Below, one piece after another: positions 1,073-36,077 of a DNA stretch of 64,000 nucleotides (the stretch's first letter is position 1; each line of letters opens with the position of its first letter). The notes under the pieces are model-generated. The model was not told where the DNA came from. It saw only the letters and a list, made by a program, of their open reading frames with translations, and ran no database searches. This DNA comes from Bordetella parapertussis (GTDB lineage Bacteria; Pseudomonadota; Gammaproteobacteria; Burkholderiales; SG8-41). The DNA is taken from contig CAMATZ010000013.1 in NCBI GenBank assembly GCA_945861275.1, forward strand, positions 2,302-66,301, in the 5' to 3' direction. The translations under genes were made by a program, and so were the position numbers.

Positions 1073-1120
1073 TTGCGTGCGCATGTGTGCCAGTGAGCGG
1101 TATCTGCCAGGAGCATTAAC

Positions 1121-1504
1121 ATGACGGATGATCTCGGAAAGCTGATCTTGCGACTGATGTTGGGCATTTTCATGCTGTTTCACGGCTATGCAAAAATTGT
1201 CAAGGGCGTGAGCGGTATCGAGGCTTCGCTGATTGGCGCAGGCTGGCCGGCGTGGGTTGCGTATGGCGTCTACATCGGCGAAGTCATCGCGCCGCTATTG
1301 GTGATACTCGGGTTTTATGCGCGCCTCGGCGGGCTGATTATTGTGGTCAACATGATTTTTGCGATTGTGTTGTCGCATTCACAGCAGTTGACTGATCTGG
1401 GCAGAAGCGGTGGCTGGGCGCTGGAGTTGCAGGGCTTCTTTCTGTTCACGGGGCTGGTGGTGGCGCTGATTGGCGCCGGACGCTATGGTGTCAACAGGCG
1501 CTGA
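1121..1504 (+). CDS. DoxX family membrane protein
   Basis: 127 aa, 4 hydrophobic segments, LRLMLG..HG..K and GAGRY motifs; GGAG RBS upstream. Confidence 0.85.
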   Translation: MTDDLGKLILRLMLGIFMLFHGYAKIVKGVSGIEASLIGAGWPAWVAYGVYIGEVIAPLLVILGFYARLGGLIIVVNMIFAIVLSHSQQLTDLGRSGGWALELQGFFLFTGLVVALIGAGRYGVNRR

Positions 1505-1540
1505 GCGTTTAACATAATTTACGCATCACAGGAGAATGGC

Positions 1541-2524
1541 ATGGCCGCAAACGAACAACTCAAATATTCCGCCGTTGAAGGCTGGGAGCAACTGCCCAAA
1601 GGTTACGCGCATCGTGACGTGGCCGGGGTGGCGGTGGACGGCGAGGACCGCGTGTATCTGATGTGCCGCGGCGAACATCCGGTGATTGTGTATGACCAGA
1701 AAGGCAATTTCATACGCTCCTGGGGCACCGGTGATTTTACTTATCGCACGCACGGCATTTATGTCGCGCCCAACGGCACGCTGTTTTGCACCGATGACGG
1801 CAACCATACGGTGCGGCAATTTTCGCCTGAAGGCAAATTGTTGATGACGATGGGCACCATGAATACGCCGTCCGACACCGGCTATGACGGTTCAACCACG
1901 CCATCGGTTGCGCGCTCGGCGGGGCCGTTTAATCGACCGACCAATATTGCCATCGGACTCAAGGGCGACATTTATGTGTCGGACGGCTACGGCAACGCGC
2001 GTGTGCATGTATTTTCACCGACCGGGCAACTCAAGCACTCGTGGGGCACGCCGGGGCGAGGTCCAGGACAGTTTTATTTGCCGCACGGCATCGCGATAGA
2101 TGCCAACGGGCGCGTGTTCGTGTGCGACCGCGAGAGCGACCGCATCCAGATTTTCAGTCCCGACGGCGAATTTCTGGAAGAGTGGACGGACACCCAGCGC
2201 CCGACGCATGTGGTGTTCGATGCGCAGGGCCGTGCCTACGTCACCGAACTGTGGTGGCACGTTGGTGATCATTCGTTCACCCACGGCCCGATTACCAAGG
2301 CGCGTCATGCGCGTCTCAGTATTTTTGATAAAGACGGCAAGCTATTGTCGCGCCTGGGTACGCCGGAAGCCACCGCGCCCGGCAGCTTCGCCGCGCCGCA
2401 CGGGCTGGCGGTCGATTCGAAACACGACGTCTATGTGAGTGAAGTCACCTGGACCTTCGCGGTGAGCCGTGGCCGCGCCCCAGCGGATTGCCATACGTTT
2501 CAGAAGCTGACACTCACCTCTTGA
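1541..2524 (+). CDS. NHL-repeat beta-propeller protein (peptidyl-alpha-hydroxyglycine lyase-like)
   Basis: Repeated NHL motifs FNRPTNIAI, YVSDGYGNARV, FYLPHGIAID, FAAPHGLAVD. Confidence 0.85.
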   Translation: MAANEQLKYSAVEGWEQLPKGYAHRDVAGVAVDGEDRVYLMCRGEHPVIVYDQKGNFIRSWGTGDFTYRTHGIYVAPNGTLFCTDDGNHTVRQFSPEGKLLMTMGTMNTPSDTGYDGSTTPSVARSAGPFNRPTNIAIGLKGDIYVSDGYGNARVHVFSPTGQLKHSWGTPGRGPGQFYLPHGIAIDANGRVFVCDRESDRIQIFSPDGEFLEEWTDTQRPTHVVFDAQGRAYVTELWWHVGDHSFTHGPITKARHARLSIFDKDGKLLSRLGTPEATAPGSFAAPHGLAVDSKHDVYVSEVTWTFAVSRGRAPADCHTFQKLTLTS

Positions 2525-3525
2525 TTAGTCGTGCGTTGAACGCTGTCGCTCTGCATGTGCTCTGCAACAGGCTAGTGCTTGCGCTGCTTGCGGTGACGGG
2601 GATCGTGCCCGGCGCGCAGGCGCAAGTTTGGCCGCTGCGGCCGGTGCGCGTGGTGGTGCCGTTTCCGGCGGGCGGTCCGGCGGACGTGCTGGGGCGCGTC
2701 ATGTCAGCGCGGTTCACGCAAGCGCTCGGCCAGCAGTTCGTGGTGGACAATCGCTCCGGCGCCAATGGCAGCATCGGGGCGACCCTCGTCGCCAAAGCGC
2801 CGAACGACGGCTATACCATCATGTTCGCCACCACCGGCCCGCTGGCGTTGAACCCGCTCATGTACAAGAATACGCCTTACGATCCGCTGCGCGACTTTGC
2901 GCCCGTGATCCTGTTCGGCGACGTGCCGATGATCGTCGTCGCCAACCTGGGCGCGCCGGTAAAAACCCTGCATGAGGCGATTGCCCACGCGCGGGCGAAT
3001 CCGGGCAAGCTCACGTTCGCTTCCCCGGGCTTCGCGTCGATGGGACATCTGGTTGCGGAACTGATCCAGCGCAACGCCGGCGTCAAGCTTACCCATGTGC
3101 CGTACAAGGGTTCGGCACCGGCGATGACCGAGCTGCTGGGTGGCTCGGTCAATATCGCGTTTGATCTTGCGGCAGCCTACATCCAGCATATCAAGGCAGG
3201 CCGGGTGCGGGCGCTCGCCATCTCCACAGCCACGCGTTTTGCCGCATTGCCGGACGTTCCGACTATCAGTGAGGAAGGTATTCCCGGCTATCAGGCAGCA
3301 GGTTGGTTTGGCATTGTCGGGCCGGCCGGCATGCCGCCGCAACCGATAGCGGCATTGAACAAGCTGTCGAACGCATGGCTTGCGAGCCCCGAAGGCATCA
3401 ATCGCCTGCGTGATCTGGGATCACGCCCGCTTGGCGGCACGCCTGCCGATCTTTCAACCTTCGTGCGTGCCGAAATCACCAAGTGGCGGCCCATTGTTGA
3501 GCCCATCGCTGCAGCGATCGAATAG
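2521..3525 (+). CDS. Bug/TctC tripartite tricarboxylate transporter substrate-binding protein
   Basis: WPLRPVRVVVPFPAGGPAD, DNRSGANG, HVPYKGSAPA. Start uncertain (TTG at 2521 or 2536, GTG at 2557). Confidence 0.9.
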   Translation: MISRALNAVALHVLCNRLVLALLAVTGIVPGAQAQVWPLRPVRVVVPFPAGGPADVLGRVMSARFTQALGQQFVVDNRSGANGSIGATLVAKAPNDGYTIMFATTGPLALNPLMYKNTPYDPLRDFAPVILFGDVPMIVVANLGAPVKTLHEAIAHARANPGKLTFASPGFASMGHLVAELIQRNAGVKLTHVPYKGSAPAMTELLGGSVNIAFDLAAAYIQHIKAGRVRALAISTATRFAALPDVPTISEEGIPGYQAAGWFGIVGPAGMPPQPIAALNKLSNAWLASPEGINRLRDLGSRPLGGTPADLSTFVRAEITKWRPIVEPIAAAIE

Positions 3526-3556
3526 TGCTGCAGCGATCGAAGAGAAATAATCCGCC

Positions 3557-4378
3557 ATGCAAAATGATTCTGATTCAACCCACGACGCTCCACTCGTCGA
3601 TACACATGCCCATGTCTACACCACCGGCATGCCGTTGAGCGCCACGGCCTGGCACAAGCCGCCGCAAGACGCGACCATCGAGCAGTACATCGCCACACTC
3701 GATCAACATGGCGTGCGTTACGCGGTGCTGGCGGCGGCAAGCCTCTACGACGATTACAACGAGTATTCGCTCGAAGCCACACGCAAGCACCCGCGGCTGC
3801 GCACCACGGCCATCGTGCGGCCGGACATCGACCCGTACATCCTGCGCATGATGAAAGCGGATGGTGTTACCGGTGTGCGCTTGCAGTGGCGCAACGTCAG
3901 GAATCCGCCCGATATCACCACGCCCGAGTACCGCAAGTTTCTGCGCCGCGTTGCTGATCTCGATTGGCATGTGCATCTGAATCAATCGGGAGAGTTGATC
4001 GAAGCGCCGGTCGCCGCACTGGAATCTGCTGGCGTGAAAATAGTCATCGATCATTTTGGTCACCCGCAGCGCGGCAAGGGTGTCGCGTGTGCGGGCTTTC
4101 AAGCCGTGATGCGTTCGGTAGCGCGCGGCCGCACCTGGGTCAAACTGTCAGCCGGCTATCGCATGGAGTCACCTGAAGTCGCGGAAGCGTGTGCGCGTGA
4201 ACTGGTGAAACACTGCGGTGCGGAGCGTTTACTGTGGGGCAGCGACTGGCCGTTCGCGGCATTCGAAACCAAGGTGCGCTACAGCGACACCATCGCGGCA
4301 CTGAAACGCTGGGTACCCGATGCCGCGGTACGGCGCATCATCGGCGGCGAATCCGCGCTCAGGCTGTACTTCGGGTAA
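3557..4378 (+). CDS. Amidohydrolase_2 family protein (LigI/2-pyrone-4,6-dicarboxylate lactonase-like)
   Basis: DTHAHV, VIDHFGHP, WVKLSAGYR, LWGSDWP. Confidence 0.85.
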   Translation: MQNDSDSTHDAPLVDTHAHVYTTGMPLSATAWHKPPQDATIEQYIATLDQHGVRYAVLAAASLYDDYNEYSLEATRKHPRLRTTAIVRPDIDPYILRMMKADGVTGVRLQWRNVRNPPDITTPEYRKFLRRVADLDWHVHLNQSGELIEAPVAALESAGVKIVIDHFGHPQRGKGVACAGFQAVMRSVARGRTWVKLSAGYRMESPEVAEACARELVKHCGAERLLWGSDWPFAAFETKVRYSDTIAALKRWVPDAAVRRIIGGESALRLYFG

Positions 4379-4440
4379 TTAAGTCCATTTTAGCGCTGAC
4401 CAGCGTAGCGCTGAATCAGACGCACAACGGGCCGCGCGTG

Positions 4441-5313
4441 TTATTCCGCAGGCTGAGGTGTCGGCGCCGATGCCGCAATACGCGCGTCGTTGGTGCGGGC
4501 CGGAGACGGCGTAAGCAGCGCTACCGATTCCTGCAGCTCGCGCAGCCACTTGGTTGGCTGTGCTTTCGGGCAATCTGCCACGAATCCGGCGGGCACAGCT
4601 CTGGCTTCATAACCGGCCTGCGGCAGCAGCCGCAGCGCAACGCCGTCGGCTGTCATGCGCTGGCGTTGGCCGTAGGTCGCAATCACTGCACGCGAACTCG
4701 CGTAGGAGACCGCGCTGGAGACCGTGCTCGCCGCCGCCGCGCTGCTGGTGCCGGATGTGAGCAACGCCAGCAAGCGCGCCACGTTGAGCGCCGGCGCCAA
4801 TACCGTGGCTGCCACGGAAAAAGCGATGCTGGTGGCGGTGTTCTGTTCATGGTGCCGCGATATCACGTGGCCAAGCTCGCGCGCCATGACAAAGGCGAGC
4901 GCATCATCCGACAATGAAATTTCGCTCACCGGCCGCAGCACGACAATCAGTCCACCGGCAGTGGACGCAACACCCGCTTCCATCTTGTCGGAAACGGTGA
5001 ACACAAAGCGCGGGATGCGTTGCGAGAGGCCGGGATAGGTGCGGTAGGCCGCTTCAGCCAGTTTGGCGCCGATGCGCGCGACGCGTTCCTCGAACACGGT
5101 GGGGCCGGTGCATTCCAATTCGGGGTGCTCGAAGTGGTTTTTGTGCGGGTCTGGCATAAACGCCAGCATGATTCGCAGACTCGCTTGTGAATAGATCTCG
5201 CTCACCGGTGTGGGCGCGAACACCGAGTCGCCAACATCCGGGTCGGTGGAGGCGCATCCGCTCACCATAACGCAAGCGATGCAGGCGATTAACAGGGAAT
5301 GCAAGCGGTTCAT
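4441..5313 (-). CDS. M48 metallopeptidase-like lipoprotein with degenerate zinc motif
   Basis: Lipobox VSGC; 'SDDALAFVMARELGHV' has RELGH where HExxH is expected. Confidence 0.75.
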   Translation of the reverse strand: MNRLHSLLIACIACVMVSGCASTDPDVGDSVFAPTPVSEIYSQASLRIMLAFMPDPHKNHFEHPELECTGPTVFEERVARIGAKLAEAAYRTYPGLSQRIPRFVFTVSDKMEAGVASTAGGLIVVLRPVSEISLSDDALAFVMARELGHVISRHHEQNTATSIAFSVAATVLAPALNVARLLALLTSGTSSAAAASTVSSAVSYASSRAVIATYGQRQRMTADGVALRLLPQAGYEARAVPAGFVADCPKAQPTKWLRELQESVALLTPSPARTNDARIAASAPTPQPAE

Positions 5314-5497
5314 GGATGGTGAAATCGCGGGCTCATGGTTACGATGTCAATGCGCCGGGCAGGCGCTTGCCGCAGTTGTTAAATATACCCTTTTTTAGCG
5401 CGCGGGTGCTCATTATTCATGCAGTTACATCTGCCCAAAACCGCAAAAGGTGGCAACAATACGTTACCAGCGTATGTACTGCGCTTCCGGCGTGAGG

Positions 5498-6559
5498 CTA
5501 AAACTCCCAACTTACGTTAATGGACTGAAATTTTTGCATGCCACTATTGCCCAAGGGTGTGTCGAACTCGGGGCTGCGCTGGACGTGCGTGACGGACAGC
5601 CGCAGCGGCGGCAGGCGTACGGAAAAACCTGCTTTGAGATCAGTCACAAACACCCGGCGATCCACACTTGCGCTCTCGCGAAAGCTGTTGCCATCCAGAA
5701 AAATGTTGCGGCCAACAACGCGGCTGTCAAAGCCGGCGAATACATACCATTCCGGGCGCCTGTGCGCGCCATCGGCCAGGCGTGAGCTTTGCAATAAGGC
5801 GCCGCCGGGTTCGATGGTATCGGGGCCGAAGCCGCTCATGTTTTGTCCCACGCGCACTATGCCCCCCGCACGTGCGAGCGTCATTACATTTCCCACCGTG
5901 GCGCCTGCGTGCGGCACCACTTGCAGACCTGTCGCCGGGCCATAACGCCACTTGCTCAGGTAGGCGAGCAGCACGCCCGGCTCGTTGCGGATTTGATTGC
6001 CCCAGCCCAAAGGCTGTTCGGCACCGACCAGTTTGTGCCATTCGGTTTGTACTGGTTTTCCCAGAGCTGCGGGTCCCACCATGCCCAGATCGAGTTCCAC
6101 CGTTTGCAAGCGGTCGCTGCGCACGCTTTGCGCAACGCCGCCGATATAGAGCCACGCTGCCCATGGCCGGTCCAGCGGCTGCGCTGCCGCCACGGTGATG
6201 CGCCTGGGCGTGTAGAGGTTTTGTCCGGCAAATAATCCGAGTTGAATCGCGCCCGGATCAACATCGTCCAGATGCCTGGAGATTTTCCGCAACACTGTTT
6301 TGACAGGCTCGTGAAACAGAAAATTGACCACGGGTTCGGCGCCGACGCCACCGCCAATCTTGAACCCGTTGGTGTAATAGCGATCGGTGCCCGCGCCGAA
6401 ACTGTCGTTTTCGATGAATACCTGAAACTCACAGGCAGTTTTGGCACTACACCCGATGGCTGGACCTGGCGCTTGCGGCGGCGTCTGCGCGCCGGTGGCA
6501 TGTTCCGGAGCGAGCAGTAACACCACCGCAGGTAGAATGCGGTTGATAAATCTGCGCAT
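5498..6559 (-). CDS. lpxR: Lipid A deacylase LpxR family outer-membrane protein (DUF2219)
   Basis: ENDSFG..DRYYTNG, GQNLYTP, DRPWAAWLY, RNIFLDGN, C-terminal Phe. Start placed at MRRFIN (signal peptide). Confidence 0.8.
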   Translation of the reverse strand: MRRFINRILPAVVLLLAPEHATGAQTPPQAPGPAIGCSAKTACEFQVFIENDSFGAGTDRYYTNGFKIGGGVGAEPVVNFLFHEPVKTVLRKISRHLDDVDPGAIQLGLFAGQNLYTPRRITVAAAQPLDRPWAAWLYIGGVAQSVRSDRLQTVELDLGMVGPAALGKPVQTEWHKLVGAEQPLGWGNQIRNEPGVLLAYLSKWRYGPATGLQVVPHAGATVGNVMTLARAGGIVRVGQNMSGFGPDTIEPGGALLQSSRLADGAHRRPEWYVFAGFDSRVVGRNIFLDGNSFRESASVDRRVFVTDLKAGFSVRLPPLRLSVTHVQRSPEFDTPLGNSGMQKFQSINVSWEF

Positions 6560-24036: not shown

Positions 24037-25041
24037 TCAGGGCTTTACAACCGGACTTGCGGCGGACTGCATTTGCTGGGACGGATAAACCGGCGCCAGA
24101 AAATCACGGTTGATTTCGTCGGCCAGCGCCAACAGCTTGTCGAGAAATTCCATCAGATACTCATGCAAGCCGGCATTGAAGATGAGCGAGGTGCGTCCGT
24201 AATGCAGTTGCGCGTGCAGCTCACCCGCGAGCCGCTCAGCCTCGCGCGAGGCGTTGTCGCACAAATTCTGCAGGATGACATAGATGTCGTTCATGCAGGC
24301 ATGCAGCGAACGCGGCACGTCGTCGCGCAGGATCAGCAGTTCCGCCACCTTCACCGGCGTGATCAAATCGCGGTACACCTTGCGGTAGGAATCGAACGCG
24401 GAGAGCGATCGCAGCAGTGCGCCCCACTGGTAGTAATCGACGGCACCCCCGACATCGGCGGCGCTTGGCAGCAGCGTGTGGTACTTCACGTCGAGCAGGC
24501 GCGCGGTGTTGTCGGCGCGCTCCATGAAGGTGCCGAGCCGGATGAAACTGTAACCCTCGTCGCGCAGCATGGTGCCGAAGGTTACGCCACGGAACTGGTG
24601 CGAGCGTATTTTCACCCAGTCGAAAAACTCACCCAGTCCCTCGGCCTGCAATCGCACGTAATCCTTATTGCGCATTTCCAGCCACAAGCCGTTGATATCC
24701 TCGTACATTTCAGAGGTGATGGCGCCGCGCACGGTGCGCGCGTTCTCGCGCGCCGCCTGCACGCAGGAATACAGACTCGAGGGATTCGCCGGGTCCAGCA
24801 CCATGAAGCGCAAGACATTATCGGAGGTTATCGGGCCGGGATAACGGTCGTAGTAGGCGCTGGCAAGTCCGTGGATCACCAGCGGCAGTGCCCACGGCTC
24901 CGCCCACGATTGGCCGGATTCCTGAACGCGGTAGGGCAGCAGGGACATGCGATAGGTCACATCGAGCAGGCGCGCAGTGTTCTCGGCGCGCTCGATGTGG
25001 CGCGACATCCAGTAGAGATTGTTGGCGGCGCGGCTTAGCAT
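24037..25041 (-). CDS. Alpha-E domain protein (DUF403)
   Basis: MLSRAA..YWMSRHIERAEN, ARENAR, second ERADNTAR motif. Confidence 0.92.
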   Translation of the reverse strand: MLSRAANNLYWMSRHIERAENTARLLDVTYRMSLLPYRVQESGQSWAEPWALPLVIHGLASAYYDRYPGPITSDNVLRFMVLDPANPSSLYSCVQAARENARTVRGAITSEMYEDINGLWLEMRNKDYVRLQAEGLGEFFDWVKIRSHQFRGVTFGTMLRDEGYSFIRLGTFMERADNTARLLDVKYHTLLPSAADVGGAVDYYQWGALLRSLSAFDSYRKVYRDLITPVKVAELLILRDDVPRSLHACMNDIYVILQNLCDNASREAERLAGELHAQLHYGRTSLIFNAGLHEYLMEFLDKLLALADEINRDFLAPVYPSQQMQSAASPVVKP

Positions 25042-25050
25042 GGTGGGTTC

Positions 25051-25124
25051 AGTGAAAAGTGAAGAGTGAAGAGTGAAGAGTGAGCCGTGATGGCGTGAAG
25101 GGGTGAATGCTCTTCACTCTTCAC
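25051..25124. repeat. 7-bp tandem array (GTGAAGA-like) overlapping the 3' end of the ATP-grasp gene
   Basis: agtgaaa-agtgaag-agtgaag-agtgaag...ctcttcactcttcacg. Confidence 0.85.
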
Positions 25125-26550
25125 GGTCTACATCGCCTTCAAGCACCCAAGTATCCTTGGTGCCGCCGCCTTGCGACGAGTTCACCACCAGTGAACCCTC
25201 GCGCAGCGCCACGCGGGTGAGACCCCCTGGCACCAGCGACACGGTTTTTCCCGACAGCACGTAGGGGCGCAGATCAACGTGACGCGGCGCAATGCCCGTG
25301 TCGCAGAACGTGGGACAGGTAGACAGCGCCAGCGTCGGTTGCGCGATGTAGTTGGCGGGATTGTGCAGGATGCGCTCGCGGAAATCGGCAATCTGCTGCA
25401 CGCTCGACGCCGGGCCCACCAGCATGCCAAAGCCGCCCGAACCCTGAACCTCCTTCACCACCAGCTCCGGCAGATGGCCGAGCACGTACTTCAGATCGTC
25501 AGCGCGATCGAGGCGCCAGGTCGGCACGTTGGGAATGATCGGTTCCTCGCCCAGATAAAAACGGATCATCTCCGGCACGTAGATGTAGGTCGACTTGTCA
25601 TCAGCGACGCCGCTGCCGATGGCGTTGGCGAGTGTTACGCGGCCGGCGCGATAGGCGGCAAACAGTCCCGGCACGCCGAGTGTGGAATCGGCGCGGAATG
25701 CCAGCGGATCGAGATAATCGTCGTCGATGCGGCGGTATATGACATCCACTTTTTGCGGGCCGCGGGTGGTACGCATGTAGACGGTGTTGTCGGCGACCGA
25801 CAAGTCCTGCCCCTCGACCAGTTCCACGCCCATTTGCTGCGCGAGGAAGGCATGCTCGAAATAGGCGCTGTTATAGGCGCCCGGCGTCAGCACCACCACC
25901 ATCGGATTGGTGACGCCTGCGGGCGCCACCGCCCGCAGGTTATCGAGCAGGACATCGGTGTAGTGGTCGATTGGCGCCACCGGCATGAGCGAAAACAGCT
26001 GGGGAAACAGCCGCATCATCATTCTGCGGTTCTCCAGCATGTACGAAACGCCGGACGGCGTGCGCAGGTTGTCCTCGAGCACGTAGAACTCGTCCTGGCC
26101 GGTCTTGACGATATCAACGCCGGCGACATGCACGTAAACATCGCCGGGCACGTCGACGCCGCGCATTTCCGGGCGGTAAAGTTTATTGCCCAGTACTTGC
26201 TGCTCGGGTATCAATCCGGCCTTGATGATTTCCTGCCCATGATAGATGTCCTTGAGAAAAGCGTTGAGCGCGCGCACGCGCTGGCAGGCGCCGTCATTGA
26301 TGGTTTTCCACGCGTCCGCACGCACCACGCGCGGAATGATGTCGAACGGGATCGAGCGCTCCATGCCACCTTCGTCACCGTAGACCGCGAAGGTGATGCC
26401 CAGCCGCGTGAACAGGGTGTCGGCTTCACGCTGCTTTTGCAACAGAAAATCGAGCGGCTTCGCGTTCAGCCATCCGGCGTACGAGTGGTAGTGCGCACGT
26501 ACCGCGCCGCCCTCCTCGTACATCTCGTTATAGATTGCTGGCCTGCTCAC
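25114..26550 (-). CDS. Circularly permuted type 2 ATP-grasp protein (DUF404/407)
   Basis: VLEDNLRTPSGVSY, YRRIDDDYLDP, GVADDK, RHVDLRP, VNSSQGGGTKDTWV. Confidence 0.92.
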   Translation of the reverse strand: MSRPAIYNEMYEEGGAVRAHYHSYAGWLNAKPLDFLLQKQREADTLFTRLGITFAVYGDEGGMERSIPFDIIPRVVRADAWKTINDGACQRVRALNAFLKDIYHGQEIIKAGLIPEQQVLGNKLYRPEMRGVDVPGDVYVHVAGVDIVKTGQDEFYVLEDNLRTPSGVSYMLENRRMMMRLFPQLFSLMPVAPIDHYTDVLLDNLRAVAPAGVTNPMVVVLTPGAYNSAYFEHAFLAQQMGVELVEGQDLSVADNTVYMRTTRGPQKVDVIYRRIDDDYLDPLAFRADSTLGVPGLFAAYRAGRVTLANAIGSGVADDKSTYIYVPEMIRFYLGEEPIIPNVPTWRLDRADDLKYVLGHLPELVVKEVQGSGGFGMLVGPASSVQQIADFRERILHNPANYIAQPTLALSTCPTFCDTGIAPRHVDLRPYVLSGKTVSLVPGGLTRVALREGSLVVNSSQGGGTKDTWVLEGDVDREE

Positions 26551-26767: not shown

Positions 26768-26920
26768 CAGCCATAGATGTTCGCGGGCGCTGTTACGCCA
26801 GGGCCGGGGCTAACACCCGGCGCGTTGCCCCCGCGAGACACGGGAAGCGCGCACTCAACGTGGCGGACACGAGGGCATGGTGCGGTAAGATGCGCCTTTT
26901 GTCACTCTGGTTTTTTGTCC

Positions 26921-27661
26921 ATGACTTATTGCGTCGCAGCCCTGACTGATCGCGGCATCGTGTTCGCCTCCGATTCCCGCACCAATGCCGGCGTGGACCA
27001 ATTGGCGACATTCAGCAAGATGACAGTGTTCGAGGTTTCGGGCGAGCGCGTGGTGGTGCTGTTGTCGGCGGGCAATCTGGCATCGACGCAAAGCGTGATC
27101 AGCCTGCTCAAGCTGCGCATGAGAAGCGAACAGGGCGAAATCAACGCCGGGGGAATGCTTGGGCTGCGCAGCCTCTACGACACTGCCGCGCTGGTCGGCG
27201 ATACCGTGCGCGAAGTGGTGGCGCGCGACGGGCCGGCGCTGACGCAGGAGAGCATCGATCCGGGCTGCACCTTCATTCTCGGCGGGCAGATAGCAGGCAA
27301 ATCGCAACGCCTGTTTCATATTTATCCGCAGGGCAATTTCATCGAGTCGAGCACCGACACCACCTATTTTCAGATTGGCGAGAGCAAGTACGGCAAACCC
27401 GTGATCGACCGTGTGGTCAAGTACGATACGTCGCTGAAGGATGTCGCAAAATGCCTGCTGGTGTCTTTCAACTCCACCATGCGCAGCAATCTGTCGGTGG
27501 GACTGCCTATCGATCTCGTGGTGTATGAGAAAGGCGCGCTGCGGGTCACGCTGCGGCGGCGCTTCGCGGAAGACGATGCCTATTTCTCCGAGATCGGGCG
27601 CTTCTGGTCGACCGGGTTGCGGCGGGTGTTTGCGGAAGCGCCGGACGTGCCGTGGGACTGA
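26921..27661 (+). CDS. Anbu proteasome-type protease, copy 2
   Basis: True start is MTYCVAALTDRGIVFASDSRTNAGVD..SK; FQIGESKYGKP. The ORF track start at 26777 is too far upstream. Confidence 0.9.
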   Translation: MTYCVAALTDRGIVFASDSRTNAGVDQLATFSKMTVFEVSGERVVVLLSAGNLASTQSVISLLKLRMRSEQGEINAGGMLGLRSLYDTAALVGDTVREVVARDGPALTQESIDPGCTFILGGQIAGKSQRLFHIYPQGNFIESSTDTTYFQIGESKYGKPVIDRVVKYDTSLKDVAKCLLVSFNSTMRSNLSVGLPIDLVVYEKGALRVTLRRRFAEDDAYFSEIGRFWSTGLRRVFAEAPDVPWD

Positions 27662-29158: not shown

Positions 29159-29434
29159 ATGATCAGGACCTTCCGCTGCACCGACACCCAAAGTCTGTTC
29201 AACGGCGCACGGGTGCGGCGATTCGTGAACATCGAGGCGGTAGCGCGCCGAAAACTGGAAATGGTGGCGGCTGCCAAGAAGCTGGAAGACTTACGGTTCC
29301 CACCTGGCAACCGGCTGGAAGCTCTGAAAGGCGACCGCGCTGGGCAGCACTGCATCCGCGTGAATGATAAGTTCCGCGTTTGCTTTCGCTGGAATGACGG
29401 CGCGGAGAATGTTGAGATCGTAGACTATCACTGA
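29159..29434 (+). CDS. higB: HigB/RelE-family toxin (plasmid maintenance killer type)
   Basis: PPGNRLEALKGDRAGQHCIRVNDKFRVCFRW...VEIVDYH. Confidence 0.93.
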   Translation: MIRTFRCTDTQSLFNGARVRRFVNIEAVARRKLEMVAAAKKLEDLRFPPGNRLEALKGDRAGQHCIRVNDKFRVCFRWNDGAENVEIVDYH

Positions 29435-29446
29435 AGGAGAACTGTC

Positions 29447-29776
29447 ATGTCCAAGAAGCTGCTGCCACCTATCCACCCGGGCGAAATCCTGCGCGAAGAG
29501 TTCTTAAAGCCACTGGGTCTGTCCGCCAACGCGCTTGCGCAACGTCTTGGTGTGACGGCCGCGCGTGTCAACGAGATCGCAAACGAGCAGCGCGGCATCA
29601 CGGCAGACACCGCGCTGCGACTGGGGCGCTGCTTTTCCACTACACCAGAATTCTGGATGAACCTCCAGCAGCGGTATGAGTTGGAGGTTGCCCGCCGAGA
29701 AGTCGGCGTGGCGGTGGAACGTGAAGTTGCGGCACTCGTCTTGGTGGGCGGGAACGTTCATGCTGCTCATGCCTAA
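29447..29776 (+). CDS. higA: HigA family antitoxin (HTH)
   Basis: PIHPGEILREEFLKP, ITADTALRL, FWMNLQ; toxin-first gene order. Confidence 0.93.
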   Translation: MSKKLLPPIHPGEILREEFLKPLGLSANALAQRLGVTAARVNEIANEQRGITADTALRLGRCFSTTPEFWMNLQQRYELEVARREVGVAVEREVAALVLVGGNVHAAHA

Positions 29777-29827
29777 CTTTAGCTGCACCGGACGCGCTGA
29801 AGCACGTCGGTGAGCATGACGTTAGGC

Positions 29828-29993
29828 GTCTCATGTGCCATGGCCTTATGGGTTCCCGCCGGCGCGGGAACGACAAGGTTGGTTTTGATCCACCTGAGCG
29901 CCAGTTGAAGCACACTATGCAAAGGAGCAACTTATGACCGCCAGCATCCTCCTCTACGACCCCACCGCCCCGCGCGCGAAAGTGCCGGCCCAG
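29828..29993 (+). repeat. 166-bp direct repeat, copy 2
   Basis: Partner of 28935-29100; contains the functional start of the selenoprotein gene. Confidence 0.92.
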
Positions 29994-30485
29994 GTGGAAA
30001 CCGCCCGGCCAACGCTCGAATCGCTCGCCGGCATGGTGGTGGGATTCATCGATAATGCGAAACCCAACTTTAACCATCTCGCGGACGACATCGGCGAATT
30101 GCTGATCAGCAAGTACGGCGTGAAGCAGGTATTGAAACGCCGCAAACGCGCGGCTTCGGTGCCCGCGCCAGATGACGTCTACAAGGAATTTACCGAGCAT
30201 TGTGACCTGGTAATCACCGGGTCGGGTGACTGAGGCTCCTGCACGTCGTGGAGTATCCACGACAGTGTAGAGATGACCAAACGCGGTAAGGCGGCGTTGA
30301 CGATTTGCTCGACGGCTTTCAAAACGCTGGGTCACGCGCAGGCGTCGGCGCTGGGCAAAAAAGATTTGCCGATTGCCGTGATGCCGCATCCTTTCGGGCT
30401 GCGCAAGCGTGATGAGGTGCGCGCGATCGCTGAAAAATGCGCGGACGACATTGCGCAGATGATGACCAGGGCGGGGGCGAAATGA
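29934..30485 (+). CDS. UGSC-family selenoprotein, 183 aa, Sec at codon 100 (TGA 30231-30233)
   Basis: ORFs 29934-30233 and 30273-30485 are in the same frame. Readthrough gives LVITGSGD-U-GSCTSWSIHDSVEMTKRG (UxxC motif), and a SECIS-like hairpin follows the TGA. Confidence 0.88.
30239..30270 (+). promoter_or_regulatory. Putative bacterial SECIS hairpin
   Basis: CTGCAC-GTCGTGGA-[GTA]-TCCACGAC-A-GTGTAG: perfect 8-bp upper stem, G first in the loop, 19 nt between UGA and loop. Confidence 0.8.
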
Positions 30486-31519
30486 GCAGCGCAGTCACCT
30501 TCGAAGCCCTCGATGATCTCGACGCCATTAACCAGCTCTACCGCGAACGCCGCTGGAGCGACGGCCTGCCCATCGTGCCGCCGACGCGTGAGCGCGTGGC
30601 GCGTATGCTGGCTGGCACGCAGCGCAAGCCCGCTGAGCTCATCGCGATGTTGCCGCCCGGATTCGGCGAGGCGACGGTGGAGCGCATCGCGATTAACGCG
30701 GTAATGGCGGGTTGCGATCCCGCATACCTGCCGGTGTTGATAGCGGCCACCGATGCCGTGGCGCAGGCGCAGTTTAATATTCAGGGTATCGAGGCGACCA
30801 CCAATTCGGCGGCCGTGTGGCTGGTGCTGAATGGCCCGATAGTGCAGCAGCTCGAAGTTAACGCCGCGTTTAATTGTCTCGGTCAGGGCACGTGGGCGAA
30901 CGCGACTATGGGGCGCGCAATGCGGCTGATACTGCAAAACATCGGCGGCGCATTACCCGGCGACATGGACCGTGCGACGCAGGGGCAGCCCGGCAAGTAC
31001 ACGTTCTGCTGTGGCGAAAACGAGGCGCACAGCCCGTGGGAGCCGCTGCATGTGGAACGCGGCTTCGCGCGCGACGTGAGCACAGTGACGGTGGTGGCGG
31101 CCGAAGGCACACTCAACATGAACACGCACTCGAAGGAGGCCGGCGAGTTGTTGCGCGTGATCGCCGAATCAATGGTGCATCCCACCAGCAACGAATATTG
31201 TCATGGCGGCGAACCGTGGCTGGTATTTGCGCCGGAACATGCGGACATCCTCAAAGCGGGTGGCTTTAGTAAACGCGATGTTAAGCAGCGCTTGTGGGAA
31301 CTCACCAAAATGCCGGCGCGCTGTTTGTCAGCGAATGAAATTTTGCGCGCGCAGGCCTCTCGTTCTGATGAGTATGGCGAAATCAAACCGGACACGTTGT
31401 TAAGCATTTCGCGCACGCCCGACGACATCTGGTTTATCGTCGCCGGTGGGCCGGGTACGCATTCGGTGTATGTGCCGTGTTTTGGCAACTCGCTAGCGGT
31501 GACTCGGGAAATATTATAA
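30482..31519 (+). CDS. Uncharacterised UGSC-associated partner protein
   Basis: ATGA overlap with the selenoprotein stop. Motifs WSDGLPIVPPT, IAINAVMAGC, ANATMGRA, GQPGKY, PEHA, GGPGTHS. Confidence 0.8.
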   Translation: MSSAVTFEALDDLDAINQLYRERRWSDGLPIVPPTRERVARMLAGTQRKPAELIAMLPPGFGEATVERIAINAVMAGCDPAYLPVLIAATDAVAQAQFNIQGIEATTNSAAVWLVLNGPIVQQLEVNAAFNCLGQGTWANATMGRAMRLILQNIGGALPGDMDRATQGQPGKYTFCCGENEAHSPWEPLHVERGFARDVSTVTVVAAEGTLNMNTHSKEAGELLRVIAESMVHPTSNEYCHGGEPWLVFAPEHADILKAGGFSKRDVKQRLWELTKMPARCLSANEILRAQASRSDEYGEIKPDTLLSISRTPDDIWFIVAGGPGTHSVYVPCFGNSLAVTREIL

Positions 31520-31542
31520 CTTATTGTTTTTAAAGGAAATTT

Positions 31543-32517
31543 ATGTTTAGCAGGAAACTCGCCTTCGGGATTACCGCAGTGCTTGCCGCACTGTGCATGG
31601 CACAGGGCTATGCACAAACCGGCGACTATCCCAATCGTCCGATACGCCTGATTACACCGGCGCAACCGGGCGGCACCACCGATATTCTCGCGCGGGTGTT
31701 CGGCGCGCGGCTCGCCGAAACGTACAAGCAGCAGATCGTGGTTGACAATCGCGCAAGCGCCGCGGGTGTGATCGCAGGCGAGCTCACGGCGAGAGCTGCG
31801 CCGGACGGCTACACACTGTTCATGGCCTATCATCAGCACACCGTCACCGCGGCGCTGAATCCCAAACTGCCGTATCACGCGGTCAACGACTTCACGCCGA
31901 TTTCGCAACTGACGCGGGCAGGATTAATACTCGTCATCAATCCCTCGTCGCCGCCGAAGAACCTCAAGGAATTCATCGACTGGACCAAAAACTTCAAAGG
32001 CGCGCTGAACTTCGGCTCGGCGGGCACCGGCAGCGGTGGTCACCTTGCCGGCGAACTCTACAACCTTGCGACAGGCATCAAGGCCGCGCATATTCCGTAC
32101 AAGGGCTCGGCGCCGTCGCTGATCGACCTGGCCGCCGGGCAATACCACTACAATTTCGTCGGCATGCAAGCCGCGCAGGCGCTGGTACGTGGCGGCAAGC
32201 TGCGCGCGCTGGCGGTGACCGCGCCGCGGCGTGTGGGCGCATACAAAGACCTGCCTGCGGTAGCGGAATCGCTGCCCGGCTTTGAGGTTGTCGGCTGGTA
32301 CGGTGTCATGGGGCCGGCAAAACTACCGAAGCCCATCGTCGGTAAGCTGCACGGCGACCTGGTCAAATTTCTAAATGCGCCGGATATCCGCGACCGCATC
32401 GTCGCCGATGGCTCCGAGCCGGTAGGATCGGAACCGGAAGCGTTCCGGCTGTACCTGTTGGCCGATATGGCGAAATGGGCGAAGCTGGTGAAGGAGAGCG
32501 GGGCCAAGCTGGATTGA
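31543..32517 (+). CDS. Bug/TctC substrate-binding protein
   Basis: YPNRPIRLITPAQPGGTTD, HIPYKGS. Confidence 0.92.
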   Translation: MFSRKLAFGITAVLAALCMAQGYAQTGDYPNRPIRLITPAQPGGTTDILARVFGARLAETYKQQIVVDNRASAAGVIAGELTARAAPDGYTLFMAYHQHTVTAALNPKLPYHAVNDFTPISQLTRAGLILVINPSSPPKNLKEFIDWTKNFKGALNFGSAGTGSGGHLAGELYNLATGIKAAHIPYKGSAPSLIDLAAGQYHYNFVGMQAAQALVRGGKLRALAVTAPRRVGAYKDLPAVAESLPGFEVVGWYGVMGPAKLPKPIVGKLHGDLVKFLNAPDIRDRIVADGSEPVGSEPEAFRLYLLADMAKWAKLVKESGAKLD

Positions 32518-32529
32518 TTGACTGCAACG

Positions 32530-32626
32530 GCGTGAAGGGGTGAATGAGTGAACGGGTAACCTCGCGCTGTGATCCTTCGCCTCCGGTAAGGGGAGAGCGG
32601 GATTTCACTCGTTCACTTATTCACGC
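32530..32626. repeat. 7-bp GTGAA-type inverted array
   Basis: gcgtgaaggggtgaatgagtgaacg...ttcactcgttcacttattcacgc. Confidence 0.75.
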
Positions 32627-32657
32627 AGTTATCAAAATTTTGTGGCGGAAGAAACCT

Positions 32658-33626
32658 ATGTGGTCAAATTTTCTTAAGGTATGGACGTGTGTTGGCGCAT
32701 TGGCGTTGGTGTCCGGTTTATCCAGCGCTTACGCACAGGCGCCCGCCGATGGCTCGGTGCGCGAGAAAGATATCCCGCTCACGGTGACTGAAGTCGCGCC
32801 GGGGTTGTTTTTTCAGTATCACCATCAGGAGTCGAACAATGCCTGGCTGGTGACCAGCGACGGTGTGCTGGTGATCGACACGCGCCAGCATCCCAGGCGC
32901 GGCGAGGAACTGCTGGCCGCGATCCGCAAGACCACGGACCAGCCGATAAAGTACGTGATCAACACGCATGCGCACGGCGACCATTATTTTGGCAACCCGG
33001 TATTCAAGCGTGAAGGCGCAATATTCATCGCACATCGCGATACCCAGCGCATGATGCAGGCCCATCACGGCGTGGAAATGAAACGCCGCCAGGGCTACTT
33101 TAAGCAGACGAAATTTGATCCGGCCGAGGTGCAGTTGGTGCTGCCGGACATGACTTTCGATTCGAAGCTGACGCTTACCCTCGGCGGGCGCAGCGTAGAG
33201 CTGCTGTATTTCGGCGCGGGGCAGAATCCCGGCGACACGCTGGTGTACTTCCCGCAGGAACGCGTGATGTTTTCCGGCGGTCCGTTCTCGAAAAACAGCT
33301 GGCCTAATCCGCAGTTCACGCCCTCGATGGGTAACTGGGTGGCGTTGCTGCGCAGGATTGCAGCGATGGATGTAGACAAATTTCTCGGCGGGCATGGCGA
33401 CATAGGCGCCAAAGCGGATGTGTTGAACGAAGCGCAGATGCTGTCGGACTTTGACGCGGGCATGCGTGATGCGGTGAAAAAGGGTATGAGCCGCGACGAA
33501 ATACTCAAGAGTGAGCCGTTCGCGAAATACAAAGACATACGCAATTACTACCGCATGAATTTGTTTATTAACAGTTATTATCATTTTCTGATCACCGGCA
33601 AGCCGCAAGTGCCTCTGCCGGAATAA
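32658..33626 (+). CDS. Secreted MBL-fold protein with degenerate metal ligands
   Basis: Signal peptide ending AYA; NTHAHGDH; GAGQNPGD; FSGGP; GGHG. Confidence 0.8.
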   Translation: MWSNFLKVWTCVGALALVSGLSSAYAQAPADGSVREKDIPLTVTEVAPGLFFQYHHQESNNAWLVTSDGVLVIDTRQHPRRGEELLAAIRKTTDQPIKYVINTHAHGDHYFGNPVFKREGAIFIAHRDTQRMMQAHHGVEMKRRQGYFKQTKFDPAEVQLVLPDMTFDSKLTLTLGGRSVELLYFGAGQNPGDTLVYFPQERVMFSGGPFSKNSWPNPQFTPSMGNWVALLRRIAAMDVDKFLGGHGDIGAKADVLNEAQMLSDFDAGMRDAVKKGMSRDEILKSEPFAKYKDIRNYYRMNLFINSYYHFLITGKPQVPLPE

Positions 33627-33645
33627 TACGAATGAAGAAAGCGCA

Positions 33646-34851
33646 ATGACAGCAACCAGCAACACCAATAATTTCGCTGATGTTACGTATGACCAGGCCA
33701 TGCAGCGTGCGCAGGACCTGCTTCCCTTTCTGCGCGAGCACGCTGCGGCAGGCGAACGCGCCACGCGCATGCTGCCGCAAGTCGAGGCCGAACTGCATCG
33801 GGCAGGGCTGTTCCGTTATCACCAGCCGAAATCATGGGGCGGCATGGAGCTCGAGTTCATCGCCTATTTTGATATCCCCGAAATGCTCGCGCGCGGCGAC
33901 TGCTCGGTGGGCTGGAACATCGCCAACTTGAGTTCGCACCATCGCAATGTGGCGATGTTCTGTGAACAGGCGCAGCAGGAAATGTGGGGCGAAAACCGCG
34001 ACTGCCTGGTGGCCTCGGGGATAGCCTTCGCGCAGGGCCGCGGGCAGCCGGTGGAGGGCGGCCTGCTGTTGAGCGGCCGCTGGTCGTTTTGTTCGGGGGT
34101 CGATATTGCGCATTGGAACATGCTCGGTTGTCAGGTGCGCGAGAATGATCAGATCATCGACTATCGCTATTGCATGGTGCCGCGCGCCCAGTACGAGATC
34201 ATCGACGACTGGCAGACCCTCGGCATGCGTGGCACCGGCAGCCGTTCGGTACGCTGCGACAACGTGTTCATACCCGAGCACCGCACACAGTCGATGTATG
34301 CGGCGAAACCGGGGCATGAGTTCCCGGGGCTGCGCATCAATACCCACCCGGCGTTCAAAGTGCCGACATCATCGCTGGGCGGGCATTGCATCGCCGGCGC
34401 CATTGTCGGCAATGCGCAGGCCGCAGTTGACGCCACGATAGAGATGGTCAGGTCGCGCAGCACCAGTTACACGGGTGCTGCGATGCGTGATTTTCAGAGC
34501 GTGCAACTACGCGTCGGCGCCGCGGCCGCCAAGGTTGATGCCGCGCGGGTGGTGCTGCGTAATGATTGCCTGGTGGCCGATGCCGCCGTCAAAGCGGGAA
34601 AAACGCTCGACCTGGAGGAGAAATTGCGCAACAAGCGCAACTGCGCGGCAGCGGTGAAGCTGTGCACCGAAGCGGTGGATACACTGATGGAAATGTCCGG
34701 CGCCAACGGCATATACGACACTGCGCCGTTGCAGCGCATGTTTCGTGATGCGCACGCCGCCGCCGCGCATATCAACTTCAACGCCGACGTGCAGTTAGCG
34801 CCGTGGGCGCTGGTGCAGTTTGGCGGCGAGTTCAAATCGCCGGTGATGTAA
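33646..34851 (+). CDS. ACAD-fold flavin-dependent monooxygenase, paralog 3
   Basis: QPKSWGG, GRWSFCSG, DDWQTLGMRGTGS, QRMFRDAH; closest to paralog 2. Confidence 0.85.
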   Translation: MTATSNTNNFADVTYDQAMQRAQDLLPFLREHAAAGERATRMLPQVEAELHRAGLFRYHQPKSWGGMELEFIAYFDIPEMLARGDCSVGWNIANLSSHHRNVAMFCEQAQQEMWGENRDCLVASGIAFAQGRGQPVEGGLLLSGRWSFCSGVDIAHWNMLGCQVRENDQIIDYRYCMVPRAQYEIIDDWQTLGMRGTGSRSVRCDNVFIPEHRTQSMYAAKPGHEFPGLRINTHPAFKVPTSSLGGHCIAGAIVGNAQAAVDATIEMVRSRSTSYTGAAMRDFQSVQLRVGAAAAKVDAARVVLRNDCLVADAAVKAGKTLDLEEKLRNKRNCAAAVKLCTEAVDTLMEMSGANGIYDTAPLQRMFRDAHAAAAHINFNADVQLAPWALVQFGGEFKSPVM

Positions 34852-34901
34852 ATTTTTAAATAATGAATAAAAACAAATACTTATGATACTGCCCCTGTTG
34901 C

Positions 34902-36077
34902 TTAGGTCGCCGCTGCCGCAGCCGGTGGCTCCGGCTCCTCATGCAGGGACAAACTTGAACTGATGGTGGATGCCGGTTCACCACGTTTGCTTTTGAGTTT
35001 GATGTTCAGGCGCAATTCATTAGCCGAGTCTGAATTGCGTATGGCTTCTTCATAACTGATGTGGCTCTCGGAATACAAATCGAACAGCGCCCAGTCGAAG
35101 GTTCGCATCCCGAGTTCGCGCGACTTGGTCATGAGGGATTTGATTTCAGTGAACTCGCCTTTAAAAATGCGTTCGGCAATCGAGGGCGTGTTGAGCAGGA
35201 TTTCAATGGCGGCCTTGCGCCCGGTGTTGTCTTCCATGCGCACCAGTCGCTGTGCGACGATCGCGCGCAGGTTGGCCGCGAGATCCATCAGCAGCTGCGT
35301 ACGCCGTTCTTCGGGAAAGAAATTGATGACACGCTCGATGGTCTGATTGGCGCTGTTCGCATGCAGCGTGCCCAGGCACAGATGTCCGGTTTCGGCGAAT
35401 GCGATGGCATGCTCCATGGTTTCCGCATCACGAATTTCACCGATCAGAATCACATCTGGCGCCTGACGCAGCGTGTTTTTCAGGGCGTGATGCCAGCTGT
35501 GGGTGTCGATGCCGACCTCGCGGTGCGTGATCAGCGACATCTTCGATTCATGCACATACTCCACCGGATCTTCGACCGTAATGATGTGGCCCGCCGAGGT
35601 GCGGTTACGCTGATCAATCATCGCCGCCAGCGTGGTTGATTTGCCCGAACCGGTGCCGCCGACCACCAGTACCAGGCCGCGCTTGTTCATGATGACTTCT
35701 TTGAGCACCACCGGCAGACCCAGTTTTTCGAAATTGGGAATTTCGGCGGCGATGGTGCGGATCACCATCCCGACGTGGCGCTGTTGCACAAACACGTTCA
35801 CGCGAAAGCGCGATATGCCGGGAATGGCAATCGCGAAATTGCATTCCATTTCCTTCTGGAACTCCGCGCGTTGCTCGCCGTTCATCAGCGCGTGCGCGAG
35901 CACCCGGGTGATTTCTCCGCTGAGTTTTTGAGAGGCCAGCGGCTGCATGGTGCCGTGCGCTTTCATGCTGGGCGGAAAATCAGCCGCGATAAAAAGATCC
36001 GACCCGTTTTGCGCGCTCATCACACCCAGCAACTTGTGCATATAAGCGCGCGCTTGCTCTTCGCTCAAACCCGACAT
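34902..36077 (-). CDS. pilU: Type IV pilus retraction ATPase PilU
   Basis: GGTGSGKST, TVEDPVE, LRQAPDVILIGEIRD, GHLCLGTLHANSANQ, DSANELRL. Confidence 0.9.
   Translation of the reverse strand: MSGLSEEQARAYMHKLLGVMSAQNGSDLFIAADFPPSMKAHGTMQPLASQKLSGEITRVLAHALMNGEQRAEFQKEMECNFAIAIPGISRFRVNVFVQQRHVGMVIRTIAAEIPNFEKLGLPVVLKEVIMNKRGLVLVVGGTGSGKSTTLAAMIDQRNRTSAGHIITVEDPVEYVHESKMSLITHREVGIDTHSWHHALKNTLRQAPDVILIGEIRDAETMEHAIAFAETGHLCLGTLHANSANQTIERVINFFPEERRTQLLMDLAANLRAIVAQRLVRMEDNTGRKAAIEILLNTPSIAERIFKGEFTEIKSLMTKSRELGMRTFDWALFDLYSESHISYEEAIRNSDSANELRLNIKLKSKRGEPASTISSSLSLHEEPEPPAAAAAT

Follow-up and report, generated by a model that had tools for sequence, protein, structure and literature searches.

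A predicted UGSC-family selenoprotein gene, its translationally coupled partner and the multiplication of both in a Burkholderiales genome

The 64,000-nucleotide stretch of DNA analyzed here, referred to below as the window, comes from a Burkholderiales genome deposited as Bordetella parapertussis (GenBank assembly GCA_945861275.1, contig CAMATZ010000013.1). It raises a question at positions 30231–30233, where an in-frame TGA stands between two short open reading frames (ORFs): does this codon end a gene, or does it encode selenocysteine (Sec) within one? Under translation table 11, the ORFs at 29934–30233 (99 amino acids) and 30273–30485 (70 amino acids) share a frame and are split only by the TGA, at the coordinates given in an earlier, sequence-only reading of the window. 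Translation of the TGA as U yields a product of 183 residues containing ...VITGSGD-U-GSCTSWSIHD..., which reproduces the readthrough product (ITGSGD-U-GSCTSWSIHD) put forward in that reading. The stop codon of this longer frame, TGA 30483–30485, shares bases with the start codon of the following gene (ATGA), here termed the partner gene. The elements of the locus are as follows.

29922..29927, forward strand: ribosome-binding site AAGGAG, 6 nt 5′ of the ATG, seen directly in the sequence
29934..30485, forward strand: predicted UGSC-family selenoprotein gene, 183 codons and the stop TGA 30483–30485; NF041046, PF24696
30231..30233, forward strand: in-frame TGA, predicted Sec at residue 100 in the motif D-U-G-S-C, kept in 13/13 orthologs and 24/24 paralogs
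30239..30270, forward strand: putative selenocysteine insertion sequence (SECIS) hairpin, with outer stem 30239–30244/30265–30270, inner stem 30245–30252/30256–30263 and loop GUA 30253–30255
30482..31519, forward strand: partner gene, 345 amino acids, start overlapping the UGSC stop; conserved D27, A76-G77-C78, R145 and E179

Two curated models recognize the 183-residue product, and the family to which the sequence-only reading had referred it is thereby confirmed. The NCBIfam model NF041046, “UGSC family (seleno)protein”, is passed narrowly, at 125.6 bits against a cut-off of 125, and the Pfam model PF24696 is passed at 162.3 bits against a cut-off of 25, in one stretch (residues 8–178 on model positions 3–171/172) that crosses the UGA. 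Within the length range searched, 70 database relatives were found. Of these, 63 span only 36–54% of the query because their gene calls stop at the UGA, a truncation that the earlier reading had expected of standard gene callers; the remaining seven run the full length, with Cys at position 100, as had likewise been anticipated for some homologs. In an alignment of 31 sequences, comprising the 24 paralogs of the genome and the seven Cys homologs, the Sec/Cys column is unchanged throughout, and G101 and C103 are conserved at a level of at least 90%.

The hairpin behind the UGA is composed of an 8-bp inner stem and a 6-bp outer stem with A30264 bulged, and the first nucleotide of the loop, a G, lies 19 nt from the UGA, a geometry in keeping with the bacterial SECIS model. 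The element is built as originally described, stem extension included, and its folding energy by RNAfold, computed over 66 nt, is −24.7 kcal/mol (z −2.98), a value that none of 200 shuffles equals. Twelve likely orthologs, taken from sister genomes at a DNA identity of 79–94.5%, all have the TGA at the same codon and the partner gene directly 3′. Across the 13 orthologs, third codon positions vary at 3/12 sites in the hairpin window and at 143/159 elsewhere (Fisher p 1.2e-6). Because these positions are nearly frozen inside the hairpin and variable outside it, the hairpin is, on this pattern of substitution, selected at the RNA level, and its conservation in orthologs is borne out.

Among the 24 paralogs, the stem sequences differ, and the window from +9 to +45 behind the UGA is stabler than the control median in every copy. 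Compared with 3000 random windows of the same genome, the difference has a Mann–Whitney p of 7e-11, and a comparison with other parts of the same genes is similar. When the hairpin structure of the sequence-only reading is applied unchanged to the 24 paralogs, 66.1% of cells pair, compared with 57.2% in shuffles (0/500 reach the observed value) and 27–47% when the structure is slid. RNAalifold, run on the 24 paralogs aligned without gaps, found no hairpin consensus, a failure explained by changes of stem register among the divergent copies, and Rfam gave no match in the whole window at its gathering thresholds.

Contigs of four other studies were also compared with the region 29900–30600. They are deepest exactly at 30212–30283, where summed depth is 389–5759, compared with 4–209 in thirteen upstream bins, and none of the 40 contig differences listed (112 further) falls between 30177 and 30286. 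Because these independent metagenome contigs agree over the UGA/hairpin site, a sequencing error at the TGA, a danger that the earlier reading had named, is excluded.

The machinery for Sec insertion that this reading of the TGA calls for is present in the host genome (G000; 95 contigs, 96.65% complete, 5.5 Mb). The selA gene (586 bits) adjoins selB (455 bits), a tRNA-Sec gene with anticodon TCA (G000:C6:29544-29638) adjoins selA/selB, and selD (G000:C21:19971-20891; 427 bits) is found elsewhere with one in-frame TGA of its own. The formate dehydrogenase alpha subunit gene (FdhA; G000:C22:66493-69555) likewise has one in-frame TGA; SelD and this subunit are probably also selenoproteins, judging from their reading frames. 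A further selenoprotein gene, L071:1201-1962 (reverse strand), which is G000:C1, encodes a PrdB-like protein of 254 amino acids with U157 in ...VDAVLLSPV-U-PNC-T... that scores 100.5 bits on TIGR04483, far under the cut-off of 300. The selenoprotein genes of the genome thus number at least 27: the 24 UGSC genes and those for SelD, FdhA and the PrdB-like protein. As separate observations, a Pyr_redox_2 gene of thioredoxin-reductase size (125.7 bits, 309-amino-acid frame; G000:C6:29738-30616, reverse strand) lies between selB (30779-32662) and the tRNA-Sec gene, and the full-length Cys relatives of the PrdB-like protein, at about 430 amino acids, have an extra conserved C-terminal domain that is missing in L071:1201-1962. 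With the family models, the hairpin and this machinery considered together, positions 29934–30485 are almost certainly one UGSC selenoprotein gene, whose UGA at 30231–30233 would be recoded by SelB and tRNA-Sec with the help of the hairpin at 30239–30270.

The gene is a member of an already catalogued and curated family, and in this respect “hidden”, the word chosen in the sequence-only reading, was an overstatement, for a curated NCBI model names the family and that reading itself speaks of UGSC proteins as recognised. A “UGSC-containing protein” was reported in 2007 by Zhang and Gladyshev (PMC1976440), and in 2008 the same authors (PMC2398784) rank UGSC with the leading selenoprotein families of the Global Ocean Sampling data, with 255 Sec and 21 Cys sequences from 37 samples, describe it as commoner in non-marine samples, call it “likely” thioredoxin-like and note that it is sometimes fused to a domain named Unknown_1 (the “UGSC/Unknown_1” fusion). 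We infer that Unknown_1 is the partner family described below. A table in a 2016 survey of more than 5200 genomes (PMC5029168) gives UGSC the figures 26 and 33, taken here as organisms and genes; the survey also defines “selenoprotein-rich” as at least 6 genes and classes 78.3% of such organisms as anaerobes. Reviews of 2022 and 2026 place UGSC without a function among the uncharacterised selenoproteins, and the 2026 review puts the largest bacterial selenoproteomes at 57 and 63 genes; 63 selenoproteins are ascribed to a Methylomirabilota metagenome-assembled genome in a review (PMC13188914). The present gene passes both curated models and has its Sec in U-G-S-C at the invariant position of the family, of which Cys homologs and fused forms exist. 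Nothing is different in the gene itself. What differs is the copy number, 24 in this one genome against the 26 and 33 of the survey table, and the modeled fold, which is flavodoxin-like here and was suggested to be thioredoxin-like in 2008.

The 24 UGSC genes were found with the Pfam model, and each has exactly one in-frame TGA and a motif of the U-G-x-C type. The copies are old and diverged, pairs of UGSC sequences having a median identity of 28% and pairs of partner sequences one of 33%. The multiplication extends across relatives, with the following distribution of UGSC matches.

Same genus: 20/20 genomes, 13–36 matches per genome
Four other genera of the family: 4/4 genomes, 7–12 matches per genome
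Sixteen other families of the order: 2/16 genomes, with 19 and 6 matches
Remaining 14 families of the order: 14 genomes, none found

Among the matches listed in relatives, 150/150 have one TGA (357 further matches exist). No report of a UGSC expansion, or of any parallel expansion of a selenoprotein module, was found in the literature, where supplementary tables could hold one.

What does the coupled partner gene add to this picture? In 11 of the 24 UGSC paralogs (for example G000:C39:36196-37788, 531 codons), UGSC and partner domain share a single uninterrupted reading frame, and under a 400-bp rule the fused and adjacent cases together number 20, with a twenty-first at 480 bp. Of 41 genomes compared, the same 27 have both UGSC and partner and neither was found in the other 14; the copy numbers of the two correlate at r 0.99 over the 41 genomes and 0.97 among the 27, with the caveat that kin are not independent. 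The pairwise divergences of the two halves, taken over 17 modules, give a Mantel r of 0.82 that none of 2000 permutations reaches. Because of these natural fusions, the co-occurrence and the co-divergence, UGSC and its partner very probably form a physical and functional pair, as far as comparison of genomes can tell. The ATGA overlap of the two genes also favors the pairing.

The partner protein has no Pfam or NCBIfam match, and at E ≤1 no Pfam family matches more than 1 of 46 partner relatives. Its own family is large: 6981 of 8000 candidates scored reach E 0.001 in a collection clustered at 90%, and among representatives clustered at 50%, 5368 reach E 0.001 and 1324 reach E 1e-30. Residues D27, A76, G77, G118, R145, E179 and G194 are present in all 24 genomic copies, C78 in 22 and C176 in 16. 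A second peak in the depth of the contigs from other studies, at 30548–30595 (172–793 compared with about 30–160 in the preceding bins), lies over the conserved partner region R-W-S-D-G-L-P-I-V-P-P-T, and this stretch is therefore common at the DNA level to many paralogs in other communities.

The AlphaFold model of the partner is confident, with a predicted local distance difference test score (pLDDT) of 94.2 and a predicted template-modeling score of 0.93, and it places Cys78 between two helices, a position that appears unlike a self-cleavage site such as a pyruvoyl-bearing partner of the PrdA/GrdE type would have. A Foldseek search of this model against the PDB gave nothing at E 0.001 or better; the best match has E 2.8e-3 and a template-modeling (TM) score of 0.26, and class I fumarate hydratases occupy ranks 1 to 20 as listed. 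In a wide fold search, none of 48,161 chains reaches Z ≥5. The best, the class I fumarate hydratase 7xky_A, has Z 4.5 over 177 residues at a root-mean-square deviation of 4.9, and L-serine dehydratase (Z 2.7–2.8) and CyuA (Z 2.2) appear lower. The partner profile found a single match among PDB sequences, at E 1.1, to an unrelated phosphotransferase-system protein, and the ESM Atlas returned unnamed clusters only, plus one automatically named “Thioredoxin family protein”. The lineage-wide UGSC expansion and this seemingly unseen partner fold are the parts worth taking further.

The UGSC model (pLDDT 92.4) has the order (βα)5, with Sec100 between the strand 92–98 and the helix 101–116. UGSC is thus predicted to be a small flavodoxin/Rossmann-like domain in which Sec100 and Cys103 lie just after a strand, at the N terminus of the next helix, where a reactive selenol/thiol pair is usually found. 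No single fold stands out among the matches, which are flavodoxin-like, receiver, binding-protein and Rossmann domains with TM scores of 0.3–0.5; in the wide fold search, Z runs from 11.5 to 9.6 over the best 50 rows, and 467 chains reach Z ≥8. The UGSC profile gave weak matches to glycine-rich nucleotide-binding loops among PDB sequences, the best at E 0.0015. Thioredoxin-fold UxxC/CxxC selenoproteins share with UGSC a two-residue-spaced Sec/Cys pair at a helix N terminus. UGSC differs from them in its (βα)5 order, and the rows listed by the two fold searches include no thioredoxin, an absence that does not exclude a family.

The sequence-only reading had likened the Sec region to the catalytic region of the glycine and proline reductase selenoproteins GrdB and PrdB, and this claim stands in part. 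Membership at the level of hidden Markov models (HMMs) was not found: UGSC has no match to the GrdB/PrdB family (PF07355, TIGR01918) in Pfam at E ≤1 or in NCBIfam at E ≤0.01, searches in which the PrdB-like gene of the same genome does match. The lack of GrdB/PrdB among the listed fold matches means nothing, because the PDB copy searched is without any such structure (0 matches at E ≤1). At the Sec site itself, the UGSC profile aligns with the single PrdB-like protein L071:1201-1962 over 35 columns (E 1.8e-4, HHalign probability 48%) and with a 19-sequence PrdB-like profile over 69 columns (E 6.6e-4, HHalign probability 27%), Sec on Sec and Cys on Cys. The 69 columns span the strand before Sec, U-x-x-C-T, the helix, the next strand and the PHPxG / FPLGxPLG motif. 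The alignment score of 32.9 is reached by none of 120 shuffles (60 column shuffles, 14.1 ± 2.4, maximum 22.6; 60 block shuffles, 17.6 ± 2.0, maximum 23.9), and reversal gives 10.1. By this comparison of profiles, the resemblance, which may come of common descent or of convergence, is real at the level of the Sec site.

Downstream of the partner gene, the window continues with three genes on the same strand.

31543..32517, forward strand: TctC/Bug-type periplasmic solute receptor (PF03401, 202 bits), 23 bp after the partner gene
32544..33626, forward strand: metallo-beta-lactamase-fold hydrolase, SoxH-related, under every NCBIfam cut-off; 26-bp gap
33646..34851, forward strand: HsaA/HpaB-like flavin-dependent monooxygenase of the acyl-CoA-dehydrogenase fold; 19-bp gap

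TctC/Bug genes are extremely numerous in the genome, at 536 by tblastn and 585 as first-look candidates (all 150 scored at 231 bits or above), by our estimate about one gene in ten. Because of these 536–585 genes, proximity of a TctC gene within 7 kb, seen at 18/24 loci, is close to the chance rate and was dropped as evidence, and only direct adjacency counts. A TctC gene lies within 450 bp of 12/24 modules (10 on the same strand), compared with 8.4% and 4.3% of random segments; a rough gene-aligned expectation is about 20%, and the observed figure is about 2.5 times that. Other recurrent neighbors of the modules are a short-chain dehydrogenase/reductase, a family III coenzyme A (CoA)-transferase, an acyl-CoA dehydrogenase, a thiamine pyrophosphate enzyme, MmgE/PrpD, a luciferase-like monooxygenase, other monooxygenases and a cupin, which are the usual content of organic-acid catabolic islands. 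Orphan Bug/TctC expansions of Burkholderiales offer a parallel, in that the UGSC modules sit among TctC genes in catabolic clusters, half of them with one directly adjacent; those expansions are already known, and no parallel expansion of a selenoprotein module was found in the literature. A promoter/terminator scan of 29700–35100 gave counts no higher than the shuffle level.

Upstream, a higBA-like toxin–antitoxin pair, made up of a HigB-like toxin (PF05015, 61 bits; 29159–29434) and an HTH_3 antitoxin-like ORF (29447–29776), both on the forward strand, is wedged between an HsaA-like monooxygenase gene and the UGSC gene. Farther upstream, the stretches 24037–26550 (reverse strand) and 26777–27661 (forward strand) include a circularly permuted ATP-grasp gene beside an alpha-E domain gene, and a weak proteasome/N-terminal-nucleophile-like ORF (23.3 bits) whose end overlaps the start of that monooxygenase gene.

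What, then, might the pair do? UGSC and its partner are most likely a two-part selenol/thiol reductase that would act on imported carboxylates, with a chemistry drawn from analogy. In the proposed scheme, UGSC would be one half of an enzyme whose other half is encoded by the translationally coupled gene at 30482–31519; the family of this partner carries a probable substrate site (D27, C78, R145 and E179), and the partner would bind a carboxylate imported through the adjacent TctC receptor. The Sec/Cys pair would give or take two electrons, cycling between selenol/thiol and selenenylsulfide, and electrons would pass directly to or from the substrate or by way of partner Cys78, as in selenoprotein B of the D-proline and glycine reductases. 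The 24 modules, old paralogs of one another, would be versions for different substrates.

We regard the explanation as a whole, covering the UGSC gene, the two-part enzyme with the partner and the mechanism, as moderately probable, and more so than any other. The mechanism on its own, with a carboxylate-binding partner and a redox Sec/Cys pair working in the manner of selenoprotein B, is plausible by analogy and falls somewhat short of probable. More tentative, and on balance doubtful, is the broadest form of the proposal: that these modules represent an undescribed class of selenium-dependent two-part reductases, in which the Sec domain would share remote ancestry with the GrdB/PrdB Sec site and the partner would have a fold unseen in solved structures, and that this class diversified in a freshwater Burkholderiales-like lineage into 13–36 substrate-specific, TctC-wired modules per genome.

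UGSC can be set beside selenoprotein B of D-proline reductase (PrdB) and that of the glycine/sarcosine/betaine reductases (GrdB/F/H). In both systems UxxC stands between a β-strand and a helix, with another strand and a P-x-G motif farther on, and PrdB/GrdB works with a second, substrate-binding protein on small carboxylates, as UGSC would. They part in that UGSC is without HMM-level membership and its partner is unrelated to PrdA or GrdE by HMM. Known glycine and proline reductases serve anaerobic Stickland fermentation, whereas the host of UGSC here has two heme-copper oxidase genes.

Several observations weigh against the proposed enzyme. A partner is missing within 2.5 kb of three UGSC genes (G000:C32:67460-67966, C82:6693-7181 and C81:3350-3844), and four partner genes have no UGSC within the same distance (C15:62839-63873, C33:46803-47813, C51:1359-2345 and C31:2881-3870). 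Two UGSC paralogs have Ser three residues after Sec, and Cys78 is replaced by Gly or Ala in two fused partner copies (C20, C37). The enrichment of TctC adjacency is real but modest, TctC genes being so numerous, and a thioredoxin-reductase-like gene lies beside only 1/24 modules, directly behind the one on C37. The HHalign probabilities of 27–48% make the link to GrdB/PrdB weak, and the likeness could be convergence on a common strand–loop–helix redox site; comparison of the partner with PrdA and GrdE showed no HMM-level relation. Finally, no experiment on any member of the UGSC family was found in the literature.

The four lone partner genes retain every conserved residue. The two UGSC variants, at G000:C39:25969-26466 and C5:132169-132672, differ from each other: one reads U-G-S-S and one reads U-G-T-S-C, with the Cys shifted by one.

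The alternative that survives best keeps the selenoprotein and changes its chemistry: Sec100, Cys103 and partner Cys78 would hold an Fe-S cluster or a metal in a hydro-lyase-type carboxylate enzyme, with Sec as a ligand and not a redox nucleophile. This alternative stays alive because the only structural matches of the partner, weak as they are, are [4Fe-4S] hydro-lyases. Exactly three (seleno)cysteines are conserved across the UGSC/partner pair, and aconitase-type clusters have that same number of ligands; the pair occurs here both as separate subunits and fused, and class I fumarases also come in both forms. Against this, the Z score of 4.5 is under the usual level for unrelated models in that fold search, no solved protein matches the partner at the sequence level (best E 1.1), Cys78 is missing in two partner copies, and described UxxC selenoproteins are treated as redox proteins in the relevant passages of the literature. 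We consider such a metal site improbable.

A general thioredoxin-like thiol-disulfide antioxidant, with many targets and no dedicated partner, is the function proposed in 2008, and it would suit a UxxC motif at a helix N terminus. The modeled (βα)5 order and the lack of thioredoxins among the listed fold matches speak against it, and a single housekeeping antioxidant does not fit because there are 24 diverged paralogs, each with its own co-diverging partner in catabolic clusters; this function is less probable again than a metal site. The remaining alternative, that there is no selenoprotein and that the locus is a pair of unrelated short ORFs, a pseudogene with a nonsense mutation or the product of a sequencing error, draws on the two ORFs of the table 11 reading, and it is already refuted as far as sequence can go, with hardly any probability left to it, by the single HMM stretch across the TGA, the retention of that codon in 13/13 orthologs, 24/24 paralogs and 150/150 of the listed matches in relatives, the selected hairpin and complete Sec machinery, and the contigs of four other studies, which are deepest at the UGA site and have no listed difference there.

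The two-part selenol/thiol reductase thus remains the favored reading, and its meaning for the family and for this lineage can be stated at several levels. UGSC is among the commonest selenoproteins of aquatic metagenomes (PMC2398784), and it has been without a function for almost twenty years. The present genome offers 24 natural variants of the UGSC–partner module, including 11 natural fusions, and many of the modules adjoin a solute receptor of their own, the ligand of which could point to the substrate. For annotation, pipelines without a Sec-aware step split all 24 genes, and halves of this kind make up most of the family's database entries. For the biology of the organism, a lineage with genes for aerobic respiration can carry about 27 selenoprotein genes. 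If the modules are indeed a new class of reductase, an oxygen-respiring genus would stand among the most selenoprotein-rich bacteria known, with at least 27 such genes, and this would run counter to the view of large selenoproteomes as a trait of anaerobes.

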